The notes: generated by a model from the letters alone, not told the origin. A stretch of 64,000 nucleotides of DNA from an uncultured Acidobacteriota bacterium (GCA_963725095.1 CAVRXJ010000007.1:36331-100330); one strand, 5' to 3'. Shown: positions 1,397 to 54,693, counted from the first letter of the stretch. Numbers and translations are program-made.

Positions 1397-3748
1397 ATGG
1401 CATCGCGCATTTTCGGGTCGGGCATCAAGCGGCGCGAGGATCCGCGCCTGATCACCGGGCAGGCGAAGTACACCGACGACTTCGTCCTCCCCGGCATGGC
1501 GCACCTGGCCGTCGTCCGGTCGCCCTACGCGCACGCGAAGATCAAGGCGATCCGCACGAAGAAGGCGGCCGCCATGGAAGGCGTGCTCGGCGTCTTCACG
1601 GGCAAGGACATGAAGGACGCCGGCTTCGGCCCCATCCCCTGCGCGTGGGTCGTGCCCGGGTCGGACACGAAGACGCCGCCCTACCCGCCCATCGCGATCG
1701 ACACCGTGCGCTACGTCGGCAACGCCGTGGCGATCGTCGTGGCGACGGACCGTTACATCGCGCGGGACGCCGCGGATGCGGTCGAAGTCGACTACGACGC
1801 CCTGCCTTCCGTCACCGACGCGGAGAAGGCGACGCAGAAGGGCCAGCCCCAGCTCCACGCGGACGTCCCGAACAACGTCTGCTTCAAGTGGAACGTCAAA
1901 GGGGGCGACACGGACGCCGCCTTCCGCTCGGCCGACGTGGTCGTCAAGGAGCGGATCGTCAACCAGCGCCTGATCCCGAATGCCATCGAGCCGCGCGCGG
2001 CGCTGGCGCAGTACACGTCCTCGACCAACGAGGTCACGCTCTGGGTGACGTCGCAGAATCCGCACATCGTGCGGTTCCTGCTCTCGCTCGACACCGGGAT
2101 TCCGGAGCACAAGATCCGCGTCATCGCGCCTGAGGTCGGCGGCGGCTTCGGCAGCAAGATCCCCCACTACCCGGAAGACGCGATGGTCATCTTCGCCGCG
2201 AAGATGTGCGGCTGCCCGGTCAAGTGGACCGAGACGCGCAGCGAGAACTACCGGTCGACGATCCACGGGCGCGACCACATCCAGGACGTGGAGATGGCCG
2301 CCCGCAAGGACGGGACGATCCTGGCGCTGCGCGCGAAGGTCTGGGCCAACCTCGGCGCGTACCTCTCGACCGCCTCGACGGGCATCCCGACGATCCTCCA
2401 CGGGCTGATGCTGTCGGGCGCGTACGACATCAAGAACATCCACGAGGACGTGTACGGCGTCTTCACCAACACGACGCCCACCGACGCCTACCGGGGCGCG
2501 GGACGGCCCGAGGCGACGTTCATGGTGGAGCGGCTGGTCGATCTGCTGGCCAGGAAACTGAAGATGGACCCGGCGGAGATCCGGAAGAAGAACTTCATCC
2601 CGCCCTTCACCGACGGCCACACGGTCGCGACCGGCCTGGTCTACGACTCGGGCAACTACCGCGCGGCGTTCGACAAGGCGCTCGCGATGCTCGACTACAC
2701 GGGCCTGCGCAAGAAGCAGGCGGAGCTGCGCCAGAAGGGCGAGCACCTCGGCATCGGCATCAGCACCTACGCGGAGATCTGCGGCCTCGGCCCGTCCCAG
2801 GTCGCCGGCGCCGTCGGGTTCGGCGGCGGGCTCTGGGAGAGCGCGATCGTGCGCTTCCACCCCTCCGGAAAGGTCGACGTCATGGTCGGCATCTCGCCGC
2901 ACGGCCAGGGCGAGGAGACGACCTTCGCCCAGATCGTCGCGAGCGAGCTCGGCGTCTCCGTCGACGACGTCGCCGTCGTCCACGGCGATACCGAGCGCAC
3001 GCCGATGGGCTGGGGCTCCTACGGAAGCCGCTCGACGCCGGTGGGCAGCGGAGCGCTCATGGGCGCGATCGGGAAGATCCGCGAGAAGGCCAAGATCGTC
3101 ACGGCGCACCTGCTCGAGGCCGCGGTCGAGGACATCGACTACGCCGACGGCAAGTTCTTCGTGAAGGGAACGCCCTCGAAGTTCAAGACGATCCAGGACG
3201 TGGCGTTGATGGCCAACGTGGCCTGGAACTATCCGAAGGGGCTCGAGCCGGGGCTCGAGGCGTCGGCGTTCTTCGACCCGCCCAACTTCGTCTACCCCTT
3301 CGGCGCGCACCTCGCGGTCGTTCGGGTCGACCCCGAGACGGGGGCCATCCGCCTCGAGCGCTACGTCGCCGTGGACGACTGCGGCCGCGTGATCAACCCG
3401 ATGATCGTCGAGGGGCAGATCCACGGCGGCATCGTGCAGGGCATCGGGCAGGCGCTCTGGGAAGGCGCGGCCTACGACGAGAACGGGCAGCTCACGACCG
3501 GGTCGATGATGGACTACGCCCTGCCGCGCGCGGAGTTTTTCCCGAACTTCGAGCTCGGCATGACGGAGACGCCGACCAACGTGAATCCCCTGGGCGTCAA
3601 GGGGATCGGGGAGACCGGCACGATCGCCTCGACGCCCGCCGTCTACAACGCCGTGATGGACGCGCTGGCGCCCTTCGGCGTCGAGAAAGTGAACATGCCG
3701 CTCACACCCGAGCGGGTCTGGCGCGCGATCCAGGACGCGCGGAGGTAG
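1397..3748 (+). CDS. coxL: Molybdopterin-binding large subunit of a form-II CoxL-like aerobic dehydrogenase
   Basis: Intact 783-aa ORF of the xanthine dehydrogenase/CoxL family. The active-site loop reads AYRGAGR (2486-2506), which is the form-II signature, not the AYxCSFR of true CO dehydrogenases. Confidence 0.9.
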   Translation: MASRIFGSGIKRREDPRLITGQAKYTDDFVLPGMAHLAVVRSPYAHAKIKAIRTKKAAAMEGVLGVFTGKDMKDAGFGPIPCAWVVPGSDTKTPPYPPIAIDTVRYVGNAVAIVVATDRYIARDAADAVEVDYDALPSVTDAEKATQKGQPQLHADVPNNVCFKWNVKGGDTDAAFRSADVVVKERIVNQRLIPNAIEPRAALAQYTSSTNEVTLWVTSQNPHIVRFLLSLDTGIPEHKIRVIAPEVGGGFGSKIPHYPEDAMVIFAAKMCGCPVKWTETRSENYRSTIHGRDHIQDVEMAARKDGTILALRAKVWANLGAYLSTASTGIPTILHGLMLSGAYDIKNIHEDVYGVFTNTTPTDAYRGAGRPEATFMVERLVDLLARKLKMDPAEIRKKNFIPPFTDGHTVATGLVYDSGNYRAAFDKALAMLDYTGLRKKQAELRQKGEHLGIGISTYAEICGLGPSQVAGAVGFGGGLWESAIVRFHPSGKVDVMVGISPHGQGEETTFAQIVASELGVSVDDVAVVHGDTERTPMGWGSYGSRSTPVGSGALMGAIGKIREKAKIVTAHLLEAAVEDIDYADGKFFVKGTPSKFKTIQDVALMANVAWNYPKGLEPGLEASAFFDPPNFVYPFGAHLAVVRVDPETGAIRLERYVAVDDCGRVINPMIVEGQIHGGIVQGIGQALWEGAAYDENGQLTTGSMMDYALPRAEFFPNFELGMTETPTNVNPLGVKGIGETGTIASTPAVYNAVMDALAPFGVEKVNMPLTPERVWRAIQDARR

Positions 3749-3752
3749 GCCG

Positions 3753-4620
3753 ATGTATCCCGACAACTTCGCGTACTTTCGCCCCCGGACGCTGGCGGAG
3801 GCGTCGGCGCTCCTGAAGAAGCACAAGAACTCCCGGGTCATCGCGGGCGGACACAGCCTGCTGCCGGCGATGAAGTTCCGCCTCGCCAATCCGAAGGCCC
3901 TCATCGACATCGGCGGCATCAAGGGCCTGTGCGGCATCCAGACCCGCGGCAAGGCCCTCTGGATCGGCGCGACGACGACGCATGCCGAGATCGCGGCATC
4001 GGCCCTCGTCCGCAAGTCCTGCGCCGTCCTCGCGGAGGCCGCCTCCCAGATCGGCGACCTGCAGGTCCGCAACCGCGGGACCATCGGCGGCTCGGTGTCC
4101 CACGCGGATCCCGCCGCGGACTTCCCCACGGTCCTCGTCGCCCTCGGCGCCACGATCGTCGCCCGCGGGCCAAAGGGCGAGCGCAAGATCGCGGCCGGGG
4201 ATTTCTTCCTGGACCTGTTCACGACGGCCCTGAAGCCCGGCGAGCTCGTCGCGGCGGTCCTCGTGCCGCCCTACGGCAAGGGCACGGGCGGGGTGTACCT
4301 GAAGCACGGCCATCCCGCGTCCGCCTACGCCGTCGTCGGCGTCGCGGCCATCGTCCAGATGAAGGACGGCGTCTGCGCCCGCGCGAGCCTCGTCGTCGGC
4401 GGGGCGACGCCCAATCCCGTCCGGGCCGCCGCGGCCGAGGAGGCGCTGGCGGGCAGGAAGCCCGACGCCGCGGCGATCGCCGCCGCGGCCGGAAGGGTCG
4501 CCGCCGCGATCACGCGACCCGCTGTCGGACTCCTACGCCTCGGGAGAGTTCCGGGTGCACCTGGCGACGGTCATGGCGAAACGTGCCCTCCAAACGGCCG
4601 CGGAACGCGCCCGGGGCTGA
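3753..4620 (+). CDS. coxM: FAD-binding medium subunit (CoxM type), one frame break
   Basis: ..VIAGGHSLLPAMKFRLA.. and ..RNRGTIGGSVSHADPAADF.. are FAD_binding_5 motifs. The frame breaks near 4512. The protein continues in the next frame as DPLSDSYASGEFRVHLATVMAKRALQTAAERARG with a stop at 4618-4620. Confidence 0.85.
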
Positions 4621-9724: not shown

Positions 9725-10744
9725 ATGAAGGTCGCCACTCCGCCCCGGCGGGCGCTTCGCTTCGGGCCGTGCCTCCTTCTGTTCTGCGCGGCGGCGGCGG
9801 CTCAGGACCTGGCGTCCTTCGAGCGGCGTGTCACGACCCGGCAGCTCGAGAACGGGCTGACCGTTCTCATCTGCGAGCGTCCCGGCGCGCCCGTCTTTTC
9901 CTTTTTCACGCACGTGAACGCCGGGGGAGCCCAGGAGGTTCCGGGCATCCTCGGCCTGGCGCACCTCTTCGAGCACATGGCCTTCAAGGGGACCGACCGG
10001 ATCGGCACGACCGACTACGCGGAATATGGTCGTGACGCTTGTGGGCGACGTGACGGCGCGCGAGGCCCTGCCGCTCGTCGAGAAGTATCTGGGCCGCCTT
10101 CCGAAGGGCCCGCGCCCCGAGCCGCTGCGCACCGTCGAACCCCCGCAGATCGCGGAGAAGGAAGTCATCCTCTGGGATCCGTCCCAGCCCTTCTACATCG
10201 AGGGCTACCACAAGCCCGGGGCCCTCCATCCGGACGACGCGGTCTACGACGCGATCCAGGACCTGCTCTCGGAGGGCCGCACGTCGCGTCTCTACCGCAG
10301 CCTCGTGCGGGACAAGAAGGTCGCCGCGAACGCCTCGGGCTTCAACGGATTTCCGGGAGTCAAGTACCCCAACCTCTTCGCCTTCTTCGCCGTCGCGACC
10401 CCGGGCACACCAACCGCGAGGTCGCCGACGCGATTCACGGCGAGATCGAGCGTCTGAAGCAAGAGGACGTCTCGCCGGCCGAGCTCCAGATGGTCCGGAC
10501 GCGGGCCCGGGCCAACCTGATCCGCCGGCTTGCCGACAACGAGGGGCTCGCCGTCGAGCTCGGCACGGCGCAGGCGCTCTACGGCGACTGGCGCGAGATC
10601 TTCCGAAAGGTCGATCGAATCGAAAAGGTTCGCGCCGAGGACATCCGGCGGGCGGCCCGGGCCACGTTCGTCGCCAACAACCGCACCGTCGGACGGATCG
10701 AGACGCAGAAACCCGCGCCGGCGGCGACGGAGGCGCAGCCGTGA
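9725..10744 (+). pseudogene. M16 family zinc peptidase with signal peptide, internally deleted (~115-125 aa missing) plus a further frame break
   Basis: Signal peptide MKVATPPRRALRFGPCLLLFCAAAAAQ and inverted zinc motif HLFEH (9962-9976). About 20 aa after HxxEH (..GTDRIGTTDYAE, ~10020) the sequence jumps directly to NMVVTLVGDV. In M16 enzymes that motif normally lies about 140 aa after HxxEH. A second frame break lies near 10410. Confidence 0.6.
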
Positions 10745-18783: not shown

Positions 18784-18845
18784 GGCGCCCGGCGGCGCGG
18801 GCACGCGCTAGAATCCTGTTCAGGCCACACACGAGGCCACACCAC

Positions 18846-21812
18846 ATGATCTGCCCCGAGTGCCACACCCCGAACCCTCAGGGAGCCATGATCTGCCTCC
18901 AGTGCTCCGGCGGGCTCTCCGATCCGGCCTTGACCTCTTCCGACGCCGACGGCGACTCGACTGCCCACGCTCGCCGCTCCAACCAGCCTGAAGGACTTGA
19001 GCAGCGGGAAGACGGGGCCCGCGGCGTCCGCCGCTTCGGTGCTGCCCCCGGGGATGGAGATCGGGAAACGCTACCGGGTCCTTCGGATTCTGGGGCGCGG
19101 AGGCATGGGGGCCGTCTACCAGGTCCAGGATCAGCAGCTCGACCGCGAGGTCGCGCTCAAGCTGATCCGCCCGGACATCGCCGAGAACGAAGCCGTGATC
19201 GAGCGCTTCAAGCGCGAGATCCAGCTCTCGAGCAAGGTCACGCACAAGAACGTCCTGCGCGTTTACGACCTCGGCGAGTCCGATGGCGATCCGTACCTCA
19301 CGATGCACTACATCGAGGGGGAGGACCTCGCGTCGCTCATCAAGCGCGAGAAGCGCCTGCCCGATTGCGCGAACCCTTCGCCTCTTCCGCCAGATCTGCG
19401 AGGGGCTGCAGGCGGCGCACGAGCAGGGCGTCATCCACCGGGACTTGAAGCCCCAGAACGTCATGCTCGACGCCTCGGATCGCGTGTACCTGACGGACTT
19501 CGGCCTTGCCAAGACGCTCGAGCAATCGGGCATGACGCAGACCGGCGCCGTCGATCGGAACGCCGTACTACATGTCCCCGGAGCAGGTGAAGGGCGAGCC
19601 GGCGGGTCCGCGTTCGGACATCTACTCGCTCGGCATCATCCTTTACGAAATGCTGACGGGCGCCGTGCCCTTCACGGGCAGCTCGGCCTTCGAGGTCATG
19701 ATCCAGCGGGTCCAGCGCCCGCCGCGCCCGGCCCGCGAGATCAACCCGGAGATCCCCGCCTACCTCGAAAAGATCCTCGAGCGCTGCCTCGCCATGGACC
19801 CGACGTCCCGCTACCAGTCGGTCGAGGAGATCCTCAAGGACCTCGACTCCGCCACGTTCCACACGACGATGCGGTACGAGATCCAGAAGCGGCGGTGGCT
19901 GTGGCCGGCGGTTGGCGGAACCGCTCTGATTCTCGGGCTGGCGCTGACAGGCTGGTGGCTGCGCGGCCGGGTCTCGACGGCGGCAAAGGAAACGGTCCAC
20001 AAGCCGGAATCGGTTCTGATCACGGATTTCGCCAACAAGACCGGCGAGCCGGTCTTCGACGGCACCCTCGAGCCGGCCTTCGGCCTCGCCCTGGAAGGCG
20101 CCTCGTTCCTCACGTCCTACAACCGCGGCCAGGCGCGCAAGATCGCGGCCCAGCTCCAGCCGGGCGCGACGAGCCTGACCGAGCCCCTCGGTCGCCTGGT
20201 GGCCGTGCGGGAAGGGATCCAGGTGGTCACTTCCGGTGCGATCGAGAAGAAGGGATCGGACTACATCCTGACGGTTCGGGCGATCGACCCATCCACTGGC
20301 AAACAGATCGCCGCACAGGAGTCCCGTGCCGGCAGCAAGGACGCCGTGCTCTCCTCGGTTGCCAGGCTCGCTGCGGGCGTGCGCTCGGCCCTCGGCGACA
20401 CGACGCCCACGTCGCTTCAGCTCGCGGCGGCGGAGACCTTCACCGCCGGCTCTCTCGAGGCCGCGCACGAGTACTCGGTCGCCCAGGACCTTCAATACGC
20501 CGGCGACTACGACAAGGCGATCCAGCGCTACCTCAAGGCGATCGAGATCGACCCGGAGCTCGGACGGGCCGACTCCGGCGTCGCCGCCCTCTATGCGAAC
20601 CAGGGCCGGCGCGACGAGGCCGAGAAGTACTACAAGCTCGCCATGGCGAAGATCGACCGCATGAGCGACCGGGAGAAGTTCCGCACCCGCGGCGGCTACT
20701 ACCTGGGCGTGCGCCGCGACCCGGACAAGGCCATCGAGGAGTACACGCAGCTGGTGGCGCGGTACCCGGCCGACACCGCCGGGATCTCGAACCTGGCGCT
20801 CGCCTACTTCTACAAGCGCGACATGGGCAAGGCACTCTCGGAGGGACGCCGCGCGATCGCGATCTATCCGAAGAATGTTCCGCAGCGAAACAACGTGGGC
20901 CTCTATGCCATGTATGCGGGAGACTTCGACGCTGCGATCCGGGAGCAGAACGAGGTCCTTCGGATGAACCCGCGGTTCGTGCTGGCCTACGTGGGGCTCG
21001 CGCTGTCACAACTGGCTCAAGGCCACGCCGACCTCGCGGCGGAGACCTGGCGCAAGGCCGAGCCGATCGACGCAAGGGGCGCCTCCGACGCCGCGCTCGG
21101 CCTCGCGGACATCGCCCTCTACGGCAGCCGGGCGGGTGATGCGGTGCCGCTGCTCGAGAAAGGCCTCGACGCCGACCTCGCGGCGAATGACCCGGTCTCC
21201 GCGGCGGTCAAGCTCGCCGCGCTGGCCGAGGCGAATCTGGAACTCAAGCAGACCGCCGCAGGCGCTCGCGGCGGCCGACCGGGCCGTCTCGCTCGGGAAG
21301 CGAGAAAACGTGCTCTATCCGGCCGCGCGTGTCTACCTCCGCGCCGGAAAGGACGCGAAGGCCCTTGCCCTCGCGGACGAACTCTCGACCCGCCTCGAGC
21401 AGGACCCCCAGGCCTACGCGGAGCTCATCCGAGGCGAGGTGGAGCTCTCGAACGCGGCAAGGCCCGAGAAGCGATCAAGCGGATCGAGAACGCGCGCAAG
21501 ATCGCCGACACCTGGATGGGGCACTATCTTCTCGGCCGCGCCTACTTCGAGGCCGGCGCCTTCCCGGACGCGGACCGCGAGCTCGAGGCCTGCGTCCGCC
21601 GACGCGGCGAGGCCACGGCGCTCTTCCTGGACGAGGCGCCGACCTATCGGTACTACCCTCCGGTCTCCTACTACCTGGGGCGTGCCAAAGAGGAGCTCAA
21701 GAGCCCGGCCGCCGCGGACGCCTACAAGGCCTACCTCTCCGTCAAGGAAAATGCCGTCGCGGATCCGCTCGCCGACGACGCCCGGCGAAGGCTCGGCTCA
21801 GCGAAGCCCTAG
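18846..21812 (+). CDS. Ser/Thr protein kinase 1: N-terminal zinc ribbon, Hanks kinase, one TM, periplasmic domain, TPR array; about 5 frame breaks
   Basis: MICPECHTPNPQGAMICLQCSG (CxxC..CxxC). Kinase motifs GRGGMGAVY, ALKLI, HRDLKPQNVML, DFGLAK, (GTPYY)MSPEQ. TM segment WLWPAVGGTALILGLALTGWWL. TPR-like C-terminus ending ..DDARRRLGSAKP. Breaks near 18965, 19368, 19553, 21252 and 21458. Confidence 0.8.
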
Positions 21813-21876
21813 CCCCTCCGGGGCGGCCCCGGCGCAGCGCCAGGCCCCGGGGCTACAATCCTGCAACGCGATCCCG

Positions 21877-24800
21877 ATGATCTGCCCCGCCTGCCAGACC
21901 CCCAACCCGGACGGCCTCCCCGCTTGTTCGCATTGCAGCGTCCCGCTCCCTGACGCGGATCGCACGCTGCAACTGGATGCGTCCGATGCGGCCGAGATGC
22001 CGACGATGGCCAGCCCCACGTCGCTCAAGGAGTGGGTCAAGAGCCGCCCCACGGGCGGCGTGCCGGCCTCCGTCGTCCTTCCCGAAGGCCTCGAGATCGC
22101 GGGCCGCTACCGCGTTCGGAAGCTCCTCGGCATGGGCGGCATGGGAGCCGTCTACCGCGTGCACGACGAGGAGCTCGACCGGGACGTGGCCCTGAAACTG
22201 ATCCGGTCGGACATCGCGGACAACCCCGAGGCGCTGGAGCGCTTCAAGCGCGAGATCCAGCTCTCGAGCAAGGTCACGCACAAGAACGTCCTGCGCGTCT
22301 ACGACCTCGGCGCCTCGGACGGGATCAAGTTCCTGACGATGCAGTTCGTCGAGGGCGTCGACCTCTCGACGATCCTTGAAGCGCGAAGGCCGGCTGCCCA
22401 ACCCGCGCCTGATCCACGTCTTCCGGCAGATCCTCGAGGGGCTGCGCGCCGCCCACGACCAGGGCGTCGTCCACCGCGACCTGAAGCCCCAGAACATCAT
22501 GCTCGACGCCTCCGACAACGTCTTCGTCACCGACTTCGGCCTGGCCAAGTCGATCGAGCAGTCCGGCATGACGCAGACCGGAGCGATCGTGGGCACGCCG
22601 TACTACATGTCGCCCGAACAGGTGAAGGGCGCGAAGATCGATCACCGCTCGGACATCTATTCGGTCGGCGTGATCCTCTACGAAATGTCGACCGCACGGC
22701 TCCCCTTCACGGGCTCGACACCCTACGAAGTGATGGCGCAGCGCCTGCAGCGCGCGCCGCAGCCCGCCGGCGAGCTCAACCCCGATCTGCCCGCCTATCT
22801 GAGGAAGATCCTCGAGCGGTGCATGGCGAAGGACCCGGACACCCGCTACGCCTCGGTCGAGGAGATCCTTCGTGATCTCGACAGCGGCAGCTTCCGAACG
22901 ACGCTGCGCTGGGAGGCGCAGCGCCGCCGCTGGCTGCGCCCGGCCCTCGGCGCGGCGCTCGGGGTGGCGGTCCTGGCCGGCGCGGGCGTGTGGCTTTCTC
23001 GCCGCACCGCTCCCGTGGGGACAGGTCCCCGATCCGCCGAGGCGGCCGTTCCGGTTCTGGGTGTCGTGCCCTTCGAGAATCGGACGGGCAACGCCGCGCT
23101 CGACTGGTACGGCGAAGGCGTCGGGCGCCTGGTGGCCGACGGCCTCGCGCAGTCCCGCCACCTGCGCGTCGTCTCGATGGACCGCACGCTCGCCCTGCGC
23201 CGCGGCAATGCCGACCGGGCGGCCCTGCAGAAGGCGGCCGCGGCGGCAGGCATCCAGTACCTGCTGACGGGTGACATCCTGCCCGGCCCGGCCGGCCTGA
23301 CCGTGTCGACTCGACTCTCCGACACCAGGGACGGCCACGAGCTCGCCTCCGGACGCGTCGACAAGCTCGCGCCCGCGACCCTCGTCGGCGCCGCGGACCG
23401 CATCGCGCTCGTCGCCAAGAAGGGGCTGGGCCTCCCGCCGACCGAGGGTGTGGACGCCTACGGAGCGGACTTCGTCAGCAAGAACCCGGAAGCGTACGAG
23501 TCCTACGTCGAGGGCCTCCACGCCGTCAACGAGTACCGCTACGCCCGCGCGCAGGCCGCCTTCGAACGGGCGCTCTCCAAGGCGCCCGACTACGCCATGG
23601 CCCGCTACTGGCTGGCGACCGTGAAGGCGGCCAGCGGGCGCACCGAGGAGGCGCTCGCGGACCTGAAACCGGTCGTGGCCCAGGCGTCGCGGCTGCCCGA
23701 CCGCGAGGCCCGGTACGTGCGCGCGGCGGAGGCCTACTTCGCGCGCCGCTACGACGACGCCATCAAGATGTACCGCGATCTGATCCAGCGCTACCCCTAC
23801 GAGATCGAGGCGCGGCGCATCCTGCTGCTACGTCCTGCTCGACACCAACCAGCCGAAGGAGGCGGTCGCCGAGGCGCAGGCGCTCGGCAAGGTCGCGCCG
23901 GAGAGCCACGTCGTCTGGAGCATCCAGGGCACGGCGCACCTCGCGCTGAAGGACTTCAATCAGGCCGTCGGGGACTTTCAGAAGTACGTTGCGCTGGAGC
24001 CCGAGAGCGCCAACGGTCATCACCTTCTCGGAGACGCCTACCGCTCGCAGGGAGAGCTCGACCTCGCGGCGCAGGAGTACGAGAAGGCGCTCGGAGCCGA
24101 CCCGAACTTCCACTACGCCACGGTCGCGCTGGCGTCCGTGGACATGCTGCGCGGACGGCCGGAGGACGCGTCCGCGCGCCTGGCCGCCCTGGTCTCCGAC
24201 GACAAGGCCCTGCCGGTCCACCGGATCGACGCCGGCTTCGCCCTGGCGGCCGTCGCACGGGCGGGCGGGAGGTTCCGGGCTTCGGCCCGTGTGCTCGAGA
24301 CGCTCGAGGCGCCCATCGCCCAGGAGAAGGTCCGCGAGGCGCAGGCGTCTGTCCGAACGCGGCGCGTCCCTGGCGGAGCTCGGGGAAACGGGTGAGGCCC
24401 GGCGGCTGACGGCGCTCGCCGTCGAGCGCTCGCCCGGTGTGCCGACACGCTACCTTTTCGCGCGGGGTTTGCTCGAGCTCAAGGAGCGGCGTTTCGACGA
24501 CCTTCGCCAGACGACGGCGAAGATCCGCGAGGGGGCGCTCGCGCCCGAGGACCCCGACCGAACGGAGGAGAAGGCCGCCGCCTACCTCGAGGGGCGCGCG
24601 TTCCTCGCGCAACGAAACGCGGAAGGGGCGCTCGAAGCGCTGTCGCGCGCCGTGTCGCTTTCGGGCTACGAGTACGCCATCTACCGGCGGGGCCTCGCGG
24701 AGGCGTACCTGGCCTCGAAGAAGCTGCCCGAGGCCCTTTCGGCCGCGCGCCAGGCGTCGGGCCCGCTCGATCCGACGGATCTTCGACTGGACCTCGCGCT

Positions 24801-45525: not shown

Positions 45526-45707
45526 ATCACCAGGGTCTGCCGACTCGACCTGTGGACCCGATGCAGGGAGCTTCTGGAAAGAGGTTCCGGCAAGGGACCC
45601 CGAACCGGCGGAGCGGTCTCCACGATCCCCTTTTCTGCCGACGGCAAGACCTGCGTATGGACCACCTGCGGTACTCGACCGAGATCGTCGTCGACGGGTT
45701 CAAGTGA
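45526..45707 (+). pseudogene. Orphan 3' remnant (~60 codons) of a further kinase-TolB-propeller paralogue
   Basis: Aligns to the last ~190 nt of kinases 3 and 4. CCGACGGCAAGACCTGCGT-TGGACC is almost identical to 51801-51826. It reads ..[45 protein letters not shown] only when at least 2 frames are combined. No kinase or propeller body lies upstream. Confidence 0.6.
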
Positions 45708-45713
45708 GCGGGC

Positions 45714-46342
45714 TCACTCGCGGGTGACAACGCGAGTCCCGCCGATCGAATAGCCGAGGACGATCTGCATTTCGACGGTCGCGGTCGGACCGCCGCCGCC
45801 CATGAGGAAAGCAAGGAAGTCGCCCACCGCGAGAGTCAAGCGGGGCTCGACATGCGAATTGCGGTGGGTTGCCGAGGCTGTGCCGTCCCGCGGTACCCAG
45901 GTGTCCAGAATCACAGAATAAAAGACGTCGTGATACAGCACGGGGTTGAAGCCGTAGAAGTTCTGTGGCTTGTGGGGCTGGACCTCCCCGAAGTCCTGGC
46001 TCACGTTCGTGCTGAAGGCGAAGTCCGAGAAGTCGGGCGGGGCTCCGCGCGTGACCCCTCCCAGGCACAAGACCTGGGCGAACCGCGCGGAACCCGGCTC
46101 CGCGGTAATCGTGTACGCCAGGTCCACGTCGGCGAACTCCAGCGTCATGTCTTGCTGGACCTGGAAGTAGACCGCCGCGTCGTTGTCGTGGAGATTGACC
46201 TCCCAGCCAAACCAGCCGGTGCGGCGCCCCGAAGCGCCGGCCGCGGCAGCGCCCGGATCGAATGCCGGTGACAGACCCCGCCGTCACCGCGCCCATTGCG
46301 AGGGGCGCCGCCTTGGAGGAATTGCCGGCGGTCTCTTCTCAT
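45714..46342 (-). CDS. Hypothetical exported protein with Tat-like signal (~205 aa), 2 frame breaks
   Basis: MRRDRRQFLQGGAPLAMGAVTAG.. (RRxFL twin-arginine pattern), then ..FDPGAAAAGASGRRTGWFGWEVNLHDNDAAVYFQVQQDMTLEFADVDL.. to ..IVLGYSIGGTRVVTRE. Breaks near 46290 and 46255. Confidence 0.45.
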
Positions 46343-46472: not shown

Positions 46473-46540
46473 GCGTTACAGTTCGAAGGGGGCCGAGTCT
46501 CCAGAGTCCGTTCCGGATTCGTTCCGGATGCGTTCTGGGA
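46473..46540 (+). promoter_or_regulatory. Copy A of a conserved 68-nt promoter/leader element (TACAGT box + two TCCGGA palindromes 11 bp apart)
   Basis: GCGTTACAGTTCG...TCTCCAGAGTCCGTTCCGGATTCGTTCCGGATGCGTTCTGGGA. By hand, 53 of 68 nt are identical to copy B, and 38 of 43 in the 3' core. It lies upstream of kinase 3. A second -10-like TAGAAT (46574-46579) follows. Confidence 0.5.
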
Positions 46541-46594
46541 CGACCGGGAACGGCACGATGCCTCCCTCCGGACTAGAATTCGGCAAGCGACGCC

Positions 46595-49207
46595 GTGACC
46601 GTCTCCACCGGTACCCGCCTCGGTCCCTACGAGATCCTGTCGCCGCTCGGCGCCGGGGGGATGGGCGAGGTGTATCGGGCGCGGGACACGCGGCTTGCCG
46701 CGCGAGGTCGCCGTCAAGGTTCTCCCCGAGGAGCTCGCCTCCGATCCCGAGCGCCTGCGCCGCTTCGAGCGCGAGGCCCGAGCCGCCTCCGCCCTCTCCC
46801 ACCCCAACATCGTCACCATCTACGAGGTCGCGCAGGCGGATCAGACCTCCTTCATCGCCATGGAGCTCGTCGAAGGAAAGACCCTTCGGGAGCTTGCCGC
46901 CGGAGCCGCTCTCCCCTTCCGCAAGATCCTCTCGATCGCCCCCCAGATCGCCGAGGGATTGGCCAAGGCCCACGCGGCCGGCATCGTCCACCGGGACTTG
47001 AAGCCCGAGAACGTCATGGTCACCGGCCGACGGGATCGTCAAGATCCTCGACTTCGGCCTGGCCAAGCTGACTCATCCCCAGACCGACAGCGGACAGACC
47101 GTTCCCGGCTCGACGGTCTCGGCGGCGACGAGGCCGGGCATCGCGCATGGGGACGGTCTCCTACATGTCGCCCGAGCAGGCCTCGGGGCATCCGGTGGAC
47201 TACCGCTCCGACCAGTTCTCCTTGGGCTCGATGCTCTACGAGATGGCGGCGGGCAAGCCGGCCTTCCGGCAGCCGACGACGGCGCAGACGCTGGCTTCGA
47301 TCATCGAGGACGAGCCGGAGCCGATCGGGAGGGCTGCCCCGAAGACTCCGGCTCCTCTGCGATGGGTGATCGAGAGGTGTCTGGCCAAGGAGCCCAAGGG
47401 CCGCTACGCCTCGACGGAAGATCTCGCCCGCGAGCTTGCCGACCTGAGAGACCACGTCTCGGACCTCTCGAGCGGCTCGGGGGTCGAGATCGAGCCGGCT
47501 CGCCCCCGGCCGAAGTGGCGCGCCGTCGTTCTGCCCGCCGCGATTCTCGCCGGCCTTGCCGCGATGTATTTCCTCGGCCGTCGCGTCCAGCTCGCGCAGA
47601 CTTCCTCGCCGACCTTTCGCCAGCTCACCTTCGCGGGTGCCGGCATTACGTCGGCCCGGTTCACGCCGGACGGGCAGACGGTCGTGTACAGCGTCCAGAC
47701 GGAGGGGAAGCCTCCGGAGCTCTTCTCGGTCCGGCTCGACAGCCCTGAAACGCGTTCCTTGGGCCTGCCGCCGGCGCACATCCTTTCGATCTCCTCCTCC
47801 GGCCAGATGGCGATTCTGCTCCCGCCGCCGCACGCCCTCTCCTGGTGGCTTCCTCACAGGTTTCCCATTCGGGACAACTACGGGACGCTTGCCGAGGTCG
47901 CCCTCGGCGGAGGCTCGCCTCGCGAGCTCATCGAGAACGTCCTCTATGCCGACTGGTCGCCGAACGGAAAGGATCTCGCGATCGTCCATCGCGTTGACGG
48001 CCTGGCCCGGGTCGAGTACCCGATCGGTACGACGATCTACAAAGGAGGAATTTGGGTCAACCACCCCAGGGTCTCCCCACGCGGAGATCTGGTCGCCTAC
48101 AAGGACATCGGCTGGGTCTTCTTCAAGGGGTTCCAGGACTGTTGCTCCTACGAGATCGCATGGCACCCGCGTTCCCGGGAGCTCTGGGGAAGCTGGCTGG
48201 ACGCCGGAGCGACCCGGATCAACGCTCTCGTCAGGCCGGGGCATTACCGCACCGTCACGACGCTCGCCGGCGATTTCGTTCTCTACGACATCTCCGCAGA
48301 CGGCCGCGTCCTTCTCGGCCGCGTTCACGAGAACTCCGAGATCCTCGGAAGCTTCCCGGGCGAGGCCAGGGAGCGAAACCTCTCGCATCTGGACCGTTCC
48401 TACGCGGTGGACCTCTCCTCGGACGGGGGAACACTCCTCCTCAACGAACAGATGCCGCTCGCCGAGAGCTCGTACCTGCGCAAGACCGATGGCTCGCCAG
48501 CGAAACGCCTGACCGACGGTGCAATCGGCGTCGCGCTCTCGAAGGACGGCGCCTGGATCCTCTCGCCGTACGACTACGGGAGCGGCGACAACCCGCCGCT
48601 CCTCGTGCCCACGGGCCCAGGGCAATCGCGGAAGTTGGATTCGAAAGGATCTGTTCGCGCGCGGCCCCCTCGATCTCTTTCCCGACGGAAAGCGCGTTCT
48701 CCTCGCGGGCATCGAGGGCAAAGCGCCGCCCGATCCCGGTTCCGACCGACGGCACCCGGATCTGGGTGCAGAGCATCGAGGGAGGCCAGCCGCGAGCGAT
48801 TACGCCGGCGAACGTCTCGGGGCAGGTGATCCTCGGAGACGGGCGCTTCGTCTGCGCGCGTGCGCCGGACTGGAACTGGTATCTCTATCCGACGGATGGA
48901 AACGGCGAGCCGCGCAAGGGCCGCCGGAATCCTGCCGGGCGAGGAGCCGATTCGCCCGACCGCCGACGGAAGGCTCTACGTGCGCGGCGCGGATGAGCTC
49001 AGACCCGGCGAGACGCTCATGACCACACGGGTCTATCGCCTCGACCCCTTTACCGGGCAGCGCGAGCTGTGGAAGGAGATCCCGCCCGTCAATCCGCGCG
49101 CGGGCGGCGGAATATCGTCGATCCTTTTCTCGGCGGACGGGAAGATCTGCGTCTACACGCATCATCAGTATTCCGTGGAGCTGATCCTGGCCGAGGGGCT
49201 GAAATAG
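46595..49207 (+). CDS. Ser/Thr protein kinase 3: Hanks kinase, one TM, TolB-like (WD40-like beta-propeller) periplasmic domain; about 6 frame breaks
   Basis: ..[23 protein letters not shown].., [29 protein letters not shown] segment ..[18 protein letters not shown]. Propeller-type repeats (..[13 protein letters not shown].., ..[12 protein letters not shown].., ..[10 protein letters not shown].., ..[12 protein letters not shown]..). Breaks near 46697, 47027, 47145, 48655, 48735 and 48918. Confidence 0.8.
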
Positions 49208-49212
49208 ACGCC

Positions 49213-51874
49213 ATGGCCCTTTCCTCCGGCTCCCGCCTCGGCTCCTACGAGATCCTGTCGCCGCTCGGCGCCGGGGGGATGGGCGAGGTGTATCGGGCGC
49301 GGGACACGCGGCTCGCGCGCGAGGTCGCCGTCAAGGTTCTCCCCGAGGAGCTCGCCTCCGACCCCGAGCGCCTCCGCCGCTTCGAGCGGGAGGCCAGAGC
49401 CGCCTCCGCCCTCTCCCACCCCAACATCGTCACCATCTACGAGGTCGCGCAGGCGGATCAGACCTCCTTCATCGCCATGGAGCTCGTCGAAGGCAAGACC
49501 CTGCGCGAGCTCGCCGCCGGAGCCGCGCTCCCCTTCCGCAAGATCCTCTCGATCGCCCCCCAGATCGCCGAGGGGCTGGCCAAGGCCCACTCGGCAGGCA
49601 TCGTCCACCGGGACCTGAAGCCCGAGAACGTCATGGTCACCGGCGACGGGATCGTCAAGATCCTCGACTTCGGCCTGGCCAAGCTGACCCATCCCCAGAC
49701 CGACAGCGGGCAGACGGTTCCCGGCTCGACGGTCTCGGCGGCGACGCGGCCGGGCATCGCCCTGGGAACGGTCTCCTACATGTCGCCCGAGCAGGCCTCG
49801 GGACATCCGGTGGACTACCGCTCCGATCAGTTCTCCTTGGGCTCGATGCTCTACGAGATGGCGGCGGGAAAGCCGGCGTTCAAGCGGCCGACGACGGCGC
49901 AGACGCTGGCTTCGATCATCGAGGACGAGCCGGAGCCGATCGGGAGTGCCGCTCCGAAGACTCCGGCTCCCCTGCGCTGGGTGATCGAGCGGTGCCTCTC
50001 CAAGGAACCCAAGGGCCGCTACGCCTCGACGGAGGACCTGGCCCGCGAGCTCTGCCGACCTGCGCGATCACGTCTCGGAGCTGTCGAGCGGCTCGGGCAT
50101 TGCCGTCGAGGAACCACGGCGGCGAACGCGCTGGCCCCTTGTCGCCGGACTCGTCGCGGTCGGCGTGGCGCTCACCGGAATGCTCTTTCTCGGGCGAAGA
50201 ATCGAGCGGGCCAACGCCTCGACACCCCGCTTCCGCCAGCTCACGTTTCGAGGCGTCGGGATCGGGACGGCGCGCTTCGCGCCGGACAGCCAGACGATCG
50301 TCTTCTCGGCGCAGGCGGAGGGCCAGCCACCGGAGCTCCTCTCCCTGCGACTCGACGGCTCGGAGACACGTTCGCTCGGGCTGCCCCCGGCGCAAATTCT
50401 TTCGATGTCCTCTGCGGGCGAGATGGCTCTCCTGCTCCTGCGACCCTTCGCCCTCGCCCCGCGAATCGGCCACATCGCCCTCGAACAGATCCCCCATCGC
50501 GACCCCTTCCTCCTTGCAGGCACGCTCGCCCGGGCTTCGCTGGCAGGCGGCGCACCACGCGAGATTCTCGAGGACGTGATGTTCGCAGACTGGGCCCCGA
50601 ACGACAGCGACATCGCCGTGATCCACCGCGCCGACAACGGGAACCGCATCGAGTTTCCCATCGGGAACACGATCTACCGCGAGGAGCTCAATCTGCTCAA
50701 CTACCCCCGGGTCTCGCCCCGTGGGCTCCAGATCGCGTTCAAGGACTGGGGTGAGCTCCTGGTCAGGGAAGACGGGAGGACGGCCCGGCAGATACCGGGG
50801 CCGGCGGCTGCCATCGAGATCGCCTGGTCCCCCGCCACAAAGGAGATCTGGTACACCGTGGGGTACGGGAGCGGACTGTTGGGTGCGACAGAGCTCCGCG
50901 CGATCACGGCGGGCGGGCGCGATCGGCTTGGTCACCACGCTGCCGGGAGACTTCATCCTGTTCGACATTGCGGCCGATGGCCGTGTCCTCCTGGGCCGCC
51001 TCGTCGAGAGCACCGAGCTTCTCGGCAGTTTCCCCGAGGAGCCGCGCCAGCGAAACCTGTCGCATTTCGAAGGGAACATCGCGATCGATCTCTCACGCAG
51101 CGGTGACACGCTTCTTCTCACCGATGTCGCGCTCGGGAGCGGAGGCGCGTATCTCCGGAAGACCGACGGCTCTCCACCAAAGCGGTTGGGGGATATCGAC
51201 GCGATCGCGTTGTCTCCGGACAAGAGCCTGGTGCTCGTGCAGGATGGAAACGAGGCGCCCGGTTCCATTGCCCGATGCTGCAGTCTCGTTCCGACAGGTC
51301 CGGGCCAACCGACCCGACTGGACCATCGAGGGATCGACCTCGAGTTCATCGAGGAGCATCGTTCGGCCTTCTTCCCTGACGGCAGGAGGATTCTCTGGGA
51401 GGGCCGCGAAAAGGGCCGCAGACCGAGGGTGTGGGTTCAGGAGGTCGAAGGCGGGCCGCCTCGTGCCGTGACGCCGGAGGACGTGAGACGGCCGGTGCTC
51501 GTGGGCGACGGCCGCTTCGTCTGTGCCCGCGCAGCGGACTCCGAGTGGCGCCTCTATCCGGTGGACGAGAAGGGCGAGCCCCGCAAGGTCGCCGGGGTCC
51601 TGCCTGGCGAGGAGCCGATCTCCTCGACGCCCGACGGCCTTCTCTACGTCCGCGGGGCCGACGAGCTGCGAGCCGGCGAGGGTCTCATGACGACGCGCGT
51701 CTTCCGGCTCGATCCCTTGACGGGTCGACGGGAGCTCTGGAAGGAGATCCCCCCCGCGATCCGAAGACCGGCGGCGCGATCTCGACGATCCTCTTCTCGG
51801 CCGACGGCAAGACCTGCGTCTGGACCCACATCCGCTATTCGACGGAGCTCGTTCTGGCGGAGGGGCTGAAGTAG
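49213..51874 (+). CDS. Ser/Thr protein kinase 4: tandem paralogue of kinase 3 (kinase, TM, TolB-like propeller); about 3 frame breaks
   Basis: ATG 49213, 5 nt after the kinase 3 stop. The kinase domain is almost identical to kinase 3 at the DNA level. TM segment ..[20 protein letters not shown]. Propeller repeats run to ..[28 protein letters not shown]. Breaks near 50052, 50908 and 51757. Confidence 0.8.
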
Positions 51875-51999
51875 GCGACACGGCTCGAGGCCGGCGCTGG
51901 TCGTCTCGGGATCTCCTCGGAACCGTCCTCGCCTCGGCGCGGCAGGAATGGTCCGATGGGCAAGACAGGTCAGTCGCCGGTCCGAACGCGGCCAGGCAC

Positions 52000-52470
52000 C
52001 TAGTCGCCGTGCGAGAACAGTCTCCGCGATTCGACTGTGATGATCGTTCCGGGGTCGGTGAAGATCGCCTGGGCCGCGTTCGTGTCGTCCTCCCAGATCA
52101 CGGAGACATGGGAGGTCCGGTTGAAGGCCGCCACGCTGCTGGTGACGACGACCTCGAACGATCCGTGGCAATCGTCGCCCACCGTCCACGTTCCGGAGTA
52201 GGTCTCCGTTGCGATCGTGCCCCCGAAGCTGACCGTCTGCTGGCCGGCGACTGTTCCGTCCTCGTCGAAAGTGATCGTCCCCGCGCCCGCGACGGGGAAC
52301 GCGCTGGTTGCGCCGATCCGTGTTCCGGTCGAGACGTACCCAAACGTTCCGGCCACGCTCCGGTTGGTGCACCGGTTGTGATGGCCGTTGGCCAGCGCGG
52401 CGGGCGCGATGGCCAGGGCGAGGGTGGCGAGGGATGAGATGAGCGTTGCCGTTCGAAATCTGGGGTTCAT
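52000..52470 (-). CDS. Small secreted hypothetical protein (156 aa)
   Basis: Intact ORF with signal peptide MNPRFRTATLISSLATLALAIAPAALA. The mature part is rich in G/T/V (..GTFGYVSTGTRIG..GTITFDEDGTVAGQQTVSFGGTIATETYSGTWTVGDDCHGSFEVV..) and looks like a beta-barrel. I recognise no family. Confidence 0.55.
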   Translation of the reverse strand: MNPRFRTATLISSLATLALAIAPAALANGHHNRCTNRSVAGTFGYVSTGTRIGATSAFPVAGAGTITFDEDGTVAGQQTVSFGGTIATETYSGTWTVGDDCHGSFEVVVTSSVAAFNRTSHVSVIWEDDTNAAQAIFTDPGTIITVESRRLFSHGD

Positions 52471-52513
52471 GAAATCTCCTTTCGTTTGCTTTCGCCGCGC
52501 CGAGGCGAGAAGC

Positions 52514-53882
52514 CTAGGGTCCGTAGAGATTCAGGTGAAACGCATTGACGAGGAACTTGGCCATCGGTCGCGGGCAGATCGCCTGCTCGCCGCAGAAGGT
52601 GTCGGGGCCGCAACCGGCGATCACGGCCCTCGCCCACAGGTAGTGGACGTGCTTGCAGAAGGGATCCGTCGCGGGAACGTCCGCGAGGTGCGTCAAGGCC
52701 CATAAGAGCTTCAGCCGAAGGCATTGACCGCGAACTTGGCCATCTCCCCGCGGGTCACGTCGCCCGCGGCGCAGAACTGATCGGGCGCGCAGCCGGCAAG
52801 CACCCCGATCGACCAGAGAAAGTGGACGTGCTTGCAGAACGGGTCCTCCGTCGGCACGTCGATGAAATGGAGGCTCGGGCTCGCGCCGTCGCAGGAGTAG
52901 GAGCGACCCGTCACCGGGATCCGGACCGTACGTCAACGGCACACCGGCTCCGCCGTTGGGCTGCACCCTGGCCTTGGCGACGAGAGCCGCCATCTGGATG
53001 CGCGAGAGCAGAGTCGCCCGGACAGAACTTCGACGGCGCGCACCCGAGCGTCACGTTCTTCCCGGCGATGTAGTGGACGTGCCTGCAGATCGGGCTCTCG
53101 GGCTCGACGTCCGAGAAGAGCGACGTGCCGCCCGCCCCGCAGCTGTAGGCGACGCCTCCCAGGGACCCGGATGCGGGGATCAGGCTGTCCGCGCCGGCGA
53201 TGGCCCGGGCGAGGACGATCGCCGCCGCGGCGCGGGACATGGTGTCCTCCGGGCAGAAGGCGTTCGGCGCGCAGGCGTCGAGGACTCCCCTGTGGAAGAC
53301 CGTCTCGATCTTGGCGTAAAAGGGACTGCTGCGCGGCACGTCGGCGAAGCTGCCCCCGACATGGACGGTCCAGACCTTCCGTGCGGAGATCGCGCCGGCG
53401 AGGTCCTCGGTGAAGGCCGTGTCCCAGTGGGCGGCCGGCCGTCTCTCCGGGGAGGAGACGAACATCGAGTAGCAGTTGGAGCAGGTCGACGGCTGTGCCG
53501 TCAGCGAGTAGGCGGCCATCTGGTCGCCGACGGCATAGTCGGCCCCGTCCGGCCCCGTCAGCACTCTGGCAACACCGGTTTCCGAGGGAGGACACGGCTT
53601 GTTGGGAAGGTTCACGCTGACCGCCTTGCTCTGCGTCTTCCAGGCCGGCTCCACGACCACGGTTTCGCCCGGTTCCAGAATCGCGTCGGCGTCGGAATCG
53701 CCTGTCAGGGATGGATCGACTCCCAGGGCCGCCGCGATCAGGCTGCACTGGTGGTGGACCGGAAAGCCGTGGCACGGGACGCCGGGCTTGCAGCATCCCG
53801 CCGCAAGCAGGGGGGCCGTCGCGATGGCGGCCAGAAGCAGGAGTCGCCTCGGGTTCGATTGGATCGCGGCAAGAGTCTTCAT
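52514..53882 (-). CDS. Secreted/lipoprotein-like protein with four SLH-like repeats carrying a conserved Cys pair; about 3 frame breaks
   Basis: MKTLAAIQSNPRRLLLLAAIATAPLLAAGC (lipobox-like). Four repeats: FADVPRSSPFYAKIETVFHRGVLDACAPNAFCPED.., FSDVEPESPICRHVHYIAGKNVTLGCAPSKFCPGD.., FIDVPTEDPFCKHVHFLWSIGVLAGCAPDQFCAAGDVTRGEMAKFAVNAF, and ..DVPATDPFCKHVHYLWARAVIAGCGPDTFCGE..MAKFLVNAF. Breaks near 53000, 52915 and 52712. Confidence 0.55.
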
Positions 53883-53940
53883 ATCCCCACCTCCTTCGAT
53901 GGCGACCGCGCCGAGGCAGGGCCCGAAGGCACGGCCCGCA

Positions 53941-54008
53941 GCGTTACAATTCCGGCCCAGCGGAATCTCCAGAACCGGTTCCGGATTCGTTCCGGATTCG
54001 TTCGGGGA
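53941..54008 (+). promoter_or_regulatory. Copy B of the conserved 68-nt promoter/leader element (TACAAT box + two TCCGGA palindromes 11 bp apart)
   Basis: GCGTTACAATTCC...TCTCCAGAACCGGTTCCGGATTCGTTCCGGATTCGTTCGGGGA, with TACAAT at 53945-53950 and TCCGGA at 53970-53975 and 53981-53986. It ends in the RBS GGGGAGG, 8 nt before the GTG at 54016. Confidence 0.5.
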
Positions 54009-54015
54009 GGCCGCG

Positions 54016-54693
54016 GTGCGGGTTCACTTCGGGGACTGCACGCTCGACTTCGACACGCGCGAGCTCTCGCGCGGCGGCAAGGCCGTGCACCTGGAGCCCA
54101 AGGCCTACCGGCTGCTGGAGCTGTTGCTCGACGGCGCGCCCGAAGGCCCTCTCGAAGGACGAGCTGCAGGACGCGCTCTGGCCCAAGACCTTCGTCTCGG
54201 AGACGAAGCCTCGCGCGCCTGGTCGAGGTGCTTCGTTCGAGCCTCGGCGATTCCGCCGAAGGAGCCGCAGCTGATCCGGACCGTCCACGGCTTCGGCTAC
54301 GCCTTCCGCGGCGAGGTGACGCCGGTGACGGCACGCGGCCGCGAGGCGCCCCGGCGGGCTCCGACTTCCACTGTCGGATCTCCTGGGGAGACCGGGAGAT
54401 CGCGCTCGCCGGCGGGGAGAACATCCTCGGCCGCGATCCGAGCGCCGTCGTCTGGATCGACCTCTCGAGCGTCTCGCGCCGGCACGCCCGGATCGTCGTC
54501 GGCGACGGCGAGGCGATGATCGAGGACCTCGGCAGCCGGAACGGGACCTACGTCGGCGGCGAGCGCATCTCGAAGCCGCGCACGGCTCGAAAACGGCGAC
54601 AAGATCAAGATCGGCGCCGCGTCGCTCCTGTTCCGGATGCTTTCGGCGGCCTCGGCTCGACCCAGTCGGAGATCTGCGGAGTCGTACGGCTGA
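54016..54693 (+). CDS. Transcriptional regulator: OmpR/CadC-type winged-helix DNA-binding domain fused to a C-terminal FHA domain; about 5 frame breaks
   Basis: wHTH: ..VHLEPKAYRLLELLLDGAP / ALSKDELQDALWPKTFVSET / SLARLVEVLRSSLGDSA / KEPQLIRTVHGFGYAFRG. FHA: ..REIALAGGENILGRDPSAVVWIDLSSVSRRHARIVVGDGEAMIEDLGSRNGTYVGGERI / LENGDKIKIGAASLLF. Breaks near 54137, 54205, 54257, 54352 and 54585. Stop at 54691-54693. Confidence 0.7.

Follow-up and report, generated by a model that had tools for sequence, protein, structure and literature searches.

Phased GTTC repeats upstream of a winged-helix/FHA regulator gene and a Ser/Thr kinase operon in an uncultured Acidobacteriota bacterium, a probable operator array

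The window analysed here, a stretch of 64,000 nucleotides from an uncultured Acidobacteriota bacterium (GCA_963725095.1 CAVRXJ010000007.1:36331-100330), shows two copies of a non-coding element: copy A, upstream of an operon of two Ser/Thr kinase genes, and copy B, upstream of a gene encoding a regulator with a winged helix and an FHA domain. The element is conserved in relatives in its sequence, its positions, its phasing and its genomic linkage. Judging from the sequence, each copy is probably an operator array of the adjacent winged-helix/FHA regulator, of repressor type at copy B and of activator type at copy A, with kinase input through the FHA domain. Element and regulator most likely represent the operator theme of OmpR/PhoB proteins and the theme of the EmbR-PknH pair in a new variant. 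An earlier note on this DNA was right in outline, and needs correction in the repeat unit, the geometry of the kinase promoter, the extent of the regulon and the RNA alternative that it offered.

In a gapless comparison, positions 46473-46540 (copy A) and 53941-54008 (copy B) show 53 identities in 68, and their 43-nt core shows 38 in 43, which reproduces exactly the counts of the earlier note. The runner-up 68-mer match in the window, both strands included, reaches 35 of 68, and the window-wide mean is 18.3 (standard deviation 3.7). The 20-mer GTTCCGGATTCGTTCCGGAT is located at 46510 and 53978 only, a count reached in none of 100 shuffles, and an independent repeat search also recovers the pair (62 nt, 79%). 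A profile built from 19 related copies matches copy B (E 3.5e-13) and copy A (E 6e-11), with no further match at E<10 in the window; the earlier statement that there is no third copy here is upheld by the 20-mer as well as by the profile. A match of this quality is far outside chance, and the window, with a G+C content of about 69%, contains no other copy. Their similarity continues for about 15 nt further upstream, with one indel (MAFFT). The 15 mismatches between copies A and B are located in the spacer between box and array and at variable positions of the units, and the positions conserved in the family, the AGTCTCCAG core and the GTTC phases, are intact save one, where copy B reads AATC and copy A and the consensus read AGTC. 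That the mismatches spare the conserved positions suggests selection on the array. The element is a real, specific and conserved cis-element.

The conserved module contains AGTCTCCAGA and then three GTTC-N7 direct repeats in 11-bp phase. The alignment of the 19 copies is conserved at AGTCTCCAG and at GTTC, which recurs with an exact period of 11 nt; GTTC is invariant or nearly so, and the CCGGA half is variable. The two TCCGGA palindromes 11 bp apart that were first described are present and so spaced in the window, but their palindromy is not conserved in relatives and, because the CCGGA half varies there, it is incidental. In the last 62 nt before the start of 73 regulator loci, the autocorrelation peaks at lag 11 with 0.341, against about 0.25 at other lags, and a control region 300 nt upstream of the same loci gives 0.261; the best lag is 10 or 11 in 30 of the 73 loci and in four of the 73 controls. 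Several paralog groups of the regulator coexist within one genome, and the groups other than that of the window show repeat variants of their own with the 11-bp phasing kept. The repeat unit differs between locus groups that also differ in the recognition helix, and the association with the winged-helix/FHA gene family holds in at least eight divergent groups, each with its own unit. A reading of the invariant AGTC as a GANTC methylation site was dropped by eye, since many copies read AAGTC.

With the frame-joined regulator as query, at least 264 related loci were found in representative genomes and the best 80 were examined: all of these belong to Acidobacteriota metagenome-assembled genomes, mostly of the Thermoanaerobaculia and Vicinamibacteria, and the closest relatives among them are 77-78% identical. 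The 160 nt upstream of each locus show a recurrent order, with a -10-like box (TACAAT, TAGAAT or GATAAT), RAGTC, and three to four direct repeats, phased at 10-11 bp, which extend as far as the start codon. The 19-copy profile gives 49 distinct elements in Acidobacteriota genomes and soil metagenomes. About 26 of the 49 are located 1-9 nt before the start codon of a regulator ortholog, so the absence upstream of orthologs that the earlier note had named as a refutation did not hold, and nearly all these regulator-proximal copies show a TAnnnT box 12-16 nt before AGTC. In loci L208, L242 and L224, a TAGAAT box follows the repeats by 3-14 nt and precedes the start codon by some 19-29 nt; the latter distances were read off and are approximate.

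A 19-base search pattern, TCTCCAG and three phased GTTC, gives 13 matches in 596 Gb of genomes, nine in Acidobacteriota and four that look like chance, and 40 matching soil-metagenome contigs; the Acidobacteriota matches inspected are all between genes. A pattern with 17 specified bases, GTTCCGGANNCGTTCCGGA, was too loose and was discarded, with at least 119 unrelated single matches over all phyla. The loci fetched contain one to three copies per related genome. These numbers, with two copies in 64 kb, leave no room for the generic repeat, scattered in coding and non-coding DNA, against which the earlier note had warned, and a dispersed repeat of the repetitive extragenic palindrome or miniature inverted-repeat transposable element type was rejected on them and on the intergenic location of the inspected matches. 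Loci L124 (9696, 9955), L123 (2220, 2358) and L237 (5363, 5457) show tandem arrays 90-260 nt apart upstream of the regulator, and in each the distal array is paired with a divergent gene encoding a 147-aa secreted protein. Locus L162 contains two paralogous winged-helix genes 6 kb apart with the same variant array (AGTCGTTGGGA..., at 3872-3970 and 9917-10003), and there the arrays are located upstream of a GCGCGATAATCC box, not downstream. A search of the other paralog groups for second copies, at a gapless identity of at least 70% and up to 10 kb on either side, finds only the array at this duplicated regulator paralog.

The two copies also share a -10-like box. In the 128 kb of two-strand sequence, TTASARTTC matches only TTACAGTTC (46476) and TTACAATTC (53944), and both strands of the window together contain just six TANAAT, which bears out the earlier remark that boxes such as TACAGT and TACAAT are rare in this GC-rich DNA. 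Five of the six TANAAT boxes are followed on their own strand, after 13-48 nt, by a start codon or by the operator (Table 1), and are for this reason credible -10 elements. One of them, the TAGAAT between the repeats and the kinase start, is absent from the earlier note, and its context ggacTAGAATTCg is identical to that of the regulator promoter of L208. The repeats had been placed downstream of the -10 box; this is true with respect to TACAGT and TACAAT, but in the kinase operon they are upstream of the closer TAGAAT. A simple terminator scan finds no terminator at either copy. Two other Ser/Thr kinase genes of the window, kinase 1 and kinase 2, have box and start arranged as at kinase 3 and show the near-identical box TA(G/C)AATCCTG 31 and 17 nt before the ATG (18809-18848 and 21854-21879), which suggests short-leader promoters of one common type. 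Both genes begin with MICPxC, and by eye two Cys pairs suggest a zinc ribbon.

The regulator shows an N-terminal winged helix of the OmpR/PhoB type (Trans_reg_C, PF00486), a linker of about 20 amino acids and a C-terminal FHA domain, with Pfam values on the frame-joined protein of 3.7e-17 for Trans_reg_C and 1e-20 for FHA, and it is the sole gene with either domain in the window. The FHA signature residues GR...SRRH...NGT are present. In the PDB, the best matches of the winged helix are PcoR, KdpE and CadC, and those of the FHA domain are GarA, OdhI and EmbR (2fez). Pfam gives no BTAD match in this protein of about 225 amino acids, so the regulator is not a member of the SARP family, though it may work similarly. 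A GarA-like switch through a conserved phospho-acceptor Thr in the linker was rejected, as no conserved Thr motif was found.

In 65 of the 80 loci, a kinase domain is encoded no further than 10 kb from the regulator (90 kinases in 1.37 Mb), and these linked kinase domains are 30-74%, mostly 45-74%, identical to those of the window. In at least 20 loci the kinase starts just past the regulator stop codon, and L121 shows, on one strand, the regulator, element b, two TonB-receptor genes and the kinase. It appears that, ancestrally, regulator and kinase were as a rule co-expressed. The kinases of the window are 7 kb from the regulator, behind a duplicate that retains the regulator-type -10 box.

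We infer the identity of the binder, the sign of regulation and the role of phosphorylation as follows. The leading site AGTCTCCAGA and the three repeats behind it, of consensus GTTCnGGaTTy and one helical turn (11 bp) apart, would be bound head-to-tail by the regulator. Copy B is located between the TACAAT box and the start codon, and its final unit overlaps the Shine-Dalgarno sequence GGGGAGG, in agreement with the earlier claim that this copy reaches the ribosome-binding site (RBS); because of this position, bound regulator would repress its own gene, and it may also act on the divergent SLH-lipoprotein gene. Copy A would lie about 40-90 nt upstream of the transcription start of a near-leaderless promoter with the TAGAAT box at 46574, a position of activator type with respect to the two-kinase operon, and it also faces a divergent secreted-protein gene. 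The FHA domain may dock on a phosphothreonine of the partner Hanks-type kinase, as in EmbR-PknH, and kinase activity would then set DNA binding. In many relatives, regulator and kinase share an operon behind one array; in this lineage they are separated, and the kinase operon carries a duplicate of the regulator's proposed promoter-operator, which would keep both co-regulated.

The elements outside the regulator-proximal set, hereafter second copies, are almost all without an upstream box; copy A, unlike nearly all of them, retains the regulator-type -10 box GCGTTACAGTTC. L120b, L121b, L228b, L240b and L233a are located between the regulator stop codon and a pair of TonB-dependent-receptor genes. 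Other second copies adjoin, on the AGTC side, a divergent gene encoding a secreted protein, and the divergent partners belong to an SLH-domain family (15 cases, which include the window gene left of copy B), a 147-aa family (12), DUF7948 (seven) and an NHL-like family (six). The secreted family of about 147 amino acids is the commonest partner of second copies and shows a signal peptide and then ...LLADEQCSLRSIAGDFGYTVTG...; examples are L122 8139-8576 (-) and L126 2349-2801 (-), with homologs by the elements of L209, L237, L231 and L215, and it has no Pfam match. L122a and L209b show no gene downstream of their repeats. L201 and L220 each contain two elements that face each other, each with an outward SLH-domain gene, and the two L201 elements have only these genes beside them, with none downstream of the repeats of either element. 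The L201 pair (3367-3409, + strand, and 3618-3658, - strand) has about 200 nt of non-coding DNA between, and the arrangement is conserved in a genome and in a metagenome contig alike. The proposal of the earlier note, that the regulator binds the element, autoregulates and controls the kinase operon, is strengthened in that the site is tied to the regulator gene by its position upstream of orthologs, by paralog-specific variants and by kinase linkage, and weakened in that a separate kinase copy is found in this window only, the second copies of relatives being located by secreted-protein, SLH or TonB-receptor genes.

Several results weigh against the operator mechanism or parts of it. At neither copy does a simple sigma-70 scan give a complete -35/-10 promoter, which fits factor-dependent promoters, and we know of no established promoter rules for Acidobacteriota; the transcription starts used above are deduced ones, predicted some 7 nt past TACAAT (53950) and past TAGAAT (46579), and repression at one copy and activation at the other are therefore deduced too. 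The regulator gene shows five frame switches in 678 nt and could be a pseudogene; however, frame switches every 150-600 nt or so are found in the otherwise well-conserved genes at 46595-51874, 54016-54693, 45700-46342 and 52000-53882 and, because the neighbouring genes are affected alike, they are read as long-read indel error and not as gene decay, so work on the protein needs frame correction against orthologs such as L120. A kinase is located directly right of a copy in this window and at none of the 49 copies in other genomes, so the link to the kinases rests on one locus and on indirect synteny. Since both copies are located between divergent genes, the secreted-protein genes to the left are no less likely to be their targets. 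An explanation built on this last point keeps operator and regulator and makes the leftward secreted-protein gene (45700-46342) the target of copy A, the kinases running from their own TAGAAT without control by the array; we consider it unlikely, though the most serious of the alternatives. The second copies of relatives are typically paired with such a divergent gene on the AGTC side, L122a, L209b and both L201 copies have only a gene of this kind, and the kinase to the right of a copy is peculiar to this window, all of which this explanation accommodates. It fits less well with a leftward start 153 nt from the array, where 30-90 nt is usual, with a left gene that belongs to none of the recurrent families, with the regulator-type -10 box of copy A and the TAGAAT facing the kinases, and with the co-transcription of kinase and regulator in many relatives.

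A different binder, for example another DNA-binding protein encoded elsewhere or an alternative sigma factor that would recognise GGAAC in the minus strand, with the regulator gene as target and not as source of the binder, is less probable again. The minus-strand units do read GGAAC or GAAC, like the -35 elements of extracytoplasmic function (ECF) sigma factors, but three or four units in strict 11-bp period fit tandem winged-helix binding and not a single -35, and the units of other paralog groups are not GAAC-like, yet keep phasing and position; the ECF reading was judged unlikely from the sequences. The link to the winged-helix/FHA family across the divergent groups described above also argues against another factor, whereas a Mantel test leaves room for one: the correlation with the recognition helix is significant, but the helix is not singled out, as element divergence gives r 0.47 with the recognition helix (partial r 0.25) and r 0.57 with the FHA domain. 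Because the FHA domain tracks the element at least as well, this co-variation is inseparable from shared ancestry or co-inheritance. An action of the element as RNA, in which a structured 5' leader (a UCCGGA/UCCGGA hairpin, and UCUCC pairing with the GGGGA of the RBS) controls translation or stability, is very improbable. The regulator-proximal modules do sit between the -10 box and the start codon, and copy B folds with z = -2.0. Copy A gives z = -0.5, however, RNAalifold finds no consensus pairs in the 19 copies, and Rfam gives nothing at gathering thresholds over the whole window and only noise at E<10 on both regions. Of the cells, 75.4% pair in the named fold, while shuffles give 74.5% and a slide of one column gives 74.1%, so that the covariation check proposed by the earlier note gives nothing above controls in the 19 copies and its RNA-leader alternative gains no ground. 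Nor is the position in the 5' untranslated region constant: the module is downstream of the -10 box at most loci and upstream of it at L208, L242, L224 and the L162 group, most second copies are without an upstream -10, the orientation relative to target genes is either one, and no gene is downstream at L122a, L209b and L201. The RNA nulls, together with this variable position and orientation, argue for an operator at the DNA level. About as improbable is a copy A that is a recent neutral duplicate or gene-conversion tract of the regulator promoter, left by a rearrangement that moved the kinases. Its regulator-type box GCGTTACAGTTC and the 15 nt or so of similarity further upstream agree with such an origin, and a short remnant at 45573-45677, similar to a kinase C-terminus, is a hint of rearrangement at this locus, but the mismatches avoid the family-conserved positions except for the AATC of copy B, and second copies are regular in this regulator group.

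The genes around the two copies are given in Table 1 with the boxes and arrays. Only 5 nt separate the tandem kinase genes, so they form one operon; their DNA identity is 91-97% in the kinase domain and 70-77% in the C-terminal part (compared stretches: 46589-47436 with 49207-50051, and 48758-49217 with 51427-51884), which points to recent duplication or gene conversion in the catalytic half and to divergence of the sensor halves. The lipoprotein left of copy B clusters by BLAST with the SLH-domain family located left of the element elsewhere (15 proteins, with SLH Pfam matches in members). Inside its gene, 52588-53111 contains three repeat copies 179 and 251 nt apart that correspond to Cys-rich modules, with a shared stretch of 40-51 nt (94 nt between the first two) and 71-83% identity. 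Just past the TonB-receptor-like gene, 45573-45700 encodes about 35 amino acids resembling the extreme C-terminus of PD40 kinases (...YSTEIVVDGFK*), which may be left over from a third kinase copy and a rearrangement, unless it is a shared C-terminal module.

Table 1. Promoter boxes, proposed operator arrays and genes in the window (positions counted from its first nucleotide).
Feature	Position	Strand	Remarks
Box of kinase 1 (TANAAT)	18809		ATG at 18846
Box of kinase 2 (TANAAT)	21854		ATG at 21877
TonB-dependent-receptor-like gene	42521-~45700	+	Pfam and translations
Gene of ~215-aa protein, left of copy A	45700-46342	-	twin-arginine-type signal (MRRDRRQFLQGG...); no Pfam match; frameshifted in assembly; ATG 46342 preceded by AGGAGG
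TACAGT, -10-like box	46477-46482	+	13 nt upstream of copy A; homologous to the TACAAT box of the regulator
Proposed operator, copy A	46495-46542	+	GAGTCTCCAGA, GTCC, three 11-nt units GTTCCGGATTC / GTTCCGGATGC / GTTCTGGGACG; profile match, 19-copy alignment
TAGAAT, probable -10 of kinase operon (box of kinase 3)	46574-46579	+	15 nt before GTG 46595; context ggacTAGAATTCg
Ser/Thr kinase gene, kinase 3	46595-49207	+	PD40/TolB-like C-terminal part; Pfam Pkinase and PD40; GTG start, TAG stop 49205-49207; several frameshifts
Tandem paralogous Ser/Thr kinase gene	49213-51874	+	PD40-type C-terminal part; starts 5 nt past kinase 3 stop
Lipoprotein gene with Cys-rich SLH-like repeats, left of copy B	~52000-53882	-	translation; 3' boundary 52000 approximate
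TACAAT, probable -10 of regulator gene	53945-53950	+	13 nt upstream of copy B
Proposed operator, copy B	53963-54010	+	GAATCTCCAGA, ACCG, three 11-nt units GTTCCGGATTC / GTTCCGGATTC / GTTCGGGGAGG; profile match, 19-copy alignment
Winged-helix/FHA regulator gene, ~225 aa	54016-54693	+	GTG start; Pfam on frame-joined protein
LigD gene	after regulator	-	
Box of signal-peptide gene (TANAAT)	61518		GTG at 61572

Among known systems, sites of the Pho box and of the OmpR family contain direct repeats of 11 bp, with a conserved block of about 7 bp and an A/T-rich spacer of about 4 bp, bound head-to-tail by Trans_reg_C domains. The element shares with the PhoB, OmpR, KdpE and PcoR sites the direct repeats of 11-bp period (at least two, 10-11 bp apart) and a probable cognate Trans_reg_C protein encoded alongside, whose domain is most similar to PcoR, KdpE and CadC. 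It differs from the Pho box in a distinct invariant leading site (AGTC...) and in an array located downstream of the -10 at the regulator's own gene, and the regulator differs from the PhoB/OmpR family in the lack of a receiver domain, the FHA domain replacing the input by Asp phosphorylation. The divergence of regulator and target from one short intergenic region that holds the operator is like the layout of LysR-type regulators, which allows autorepression together with control of a target; the likeness is one of layout only, DNA-binding fold and site architecture being unrelated. GarA and OdhI, whose FHA domains read kinase-dependent phosphothreonine, have the closest FHA domains by sequence, but contain no DNA-binding domain and carry an N-terminal ETTS phospho-acceptor, whereas the linker here has no conserved Thr motif.

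By analogy, EmbR-PknH of Mycobacterium tuberculosis is the closest functional precedent. Both regulators show an OmpR/PhoB-like winged helix and a C-terminal FHA domain, and both are linked to a gene encoding a Hanks-type kinase, beside embR and in 65 of the 80 loci here. The regulator of the window differs in the lack of the central BTAD (SARP) domain, in its size of about 225 amino acids with the linker of about 20, and in its phylum, and the partner kinases differ from PknH in their PD40/TolB-like C-terminal domains. It also shows a defined tandem-repeat array, its proposed operator, at its own promoter, for an EmbR equivalent of which the literature was not searched. In EmbR, the kinase docks on and phosphorylates the regulator through the FHA domain, and transcription of the targets is thereby enhanced (PMC9239209). 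A literature search found nothing on winged-helix/FHA regulators of such a type in Acidobacteria.

Few groups of soil bacteria are as abundant as the Acidobacteriota, which possess many Hanks-type kinases and are difficult subjects for genetics, and to our knowledge the route from their kinases to gene expression is essentially uncharted. We tentatively suggest that Acidobacteriota (Thermoanaerobaculia and Vicinamibacteria) may contain a large undescribed family of insulated "Ser/Thr two-component-like" pathways, each with a PD40-sensor Hanks kinase and a minimal winged-helix/FHA regulator with a private operator code in 11-bp phase. If this is true, genome sequence would suffice to read the operator code, which would stand at the promoter of the regulator itself, with copies at a few genes of surface or secreted proteins, and the family would run parallel to the His-Asp two-component systems, with FHA in place of the receiver domain. 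The regulator family (at least 264 loci), its probable operator architecture and its partner kinases are predicted from sequence alone, together with a first small candidate regulon of SLH surface proteins, TonB-dependent receptors and small secreted proteins, and these predictions are approachable in vitro with synthesised genes, without culturing the organism. An uncharacterised family of kinase-to-gene signalling thereby becomes testable; if it is confirmed, the EmbR-PknH paradigm would no longer be a single case from mycobacteria but would extend to a modular signalling system of wide distribution.

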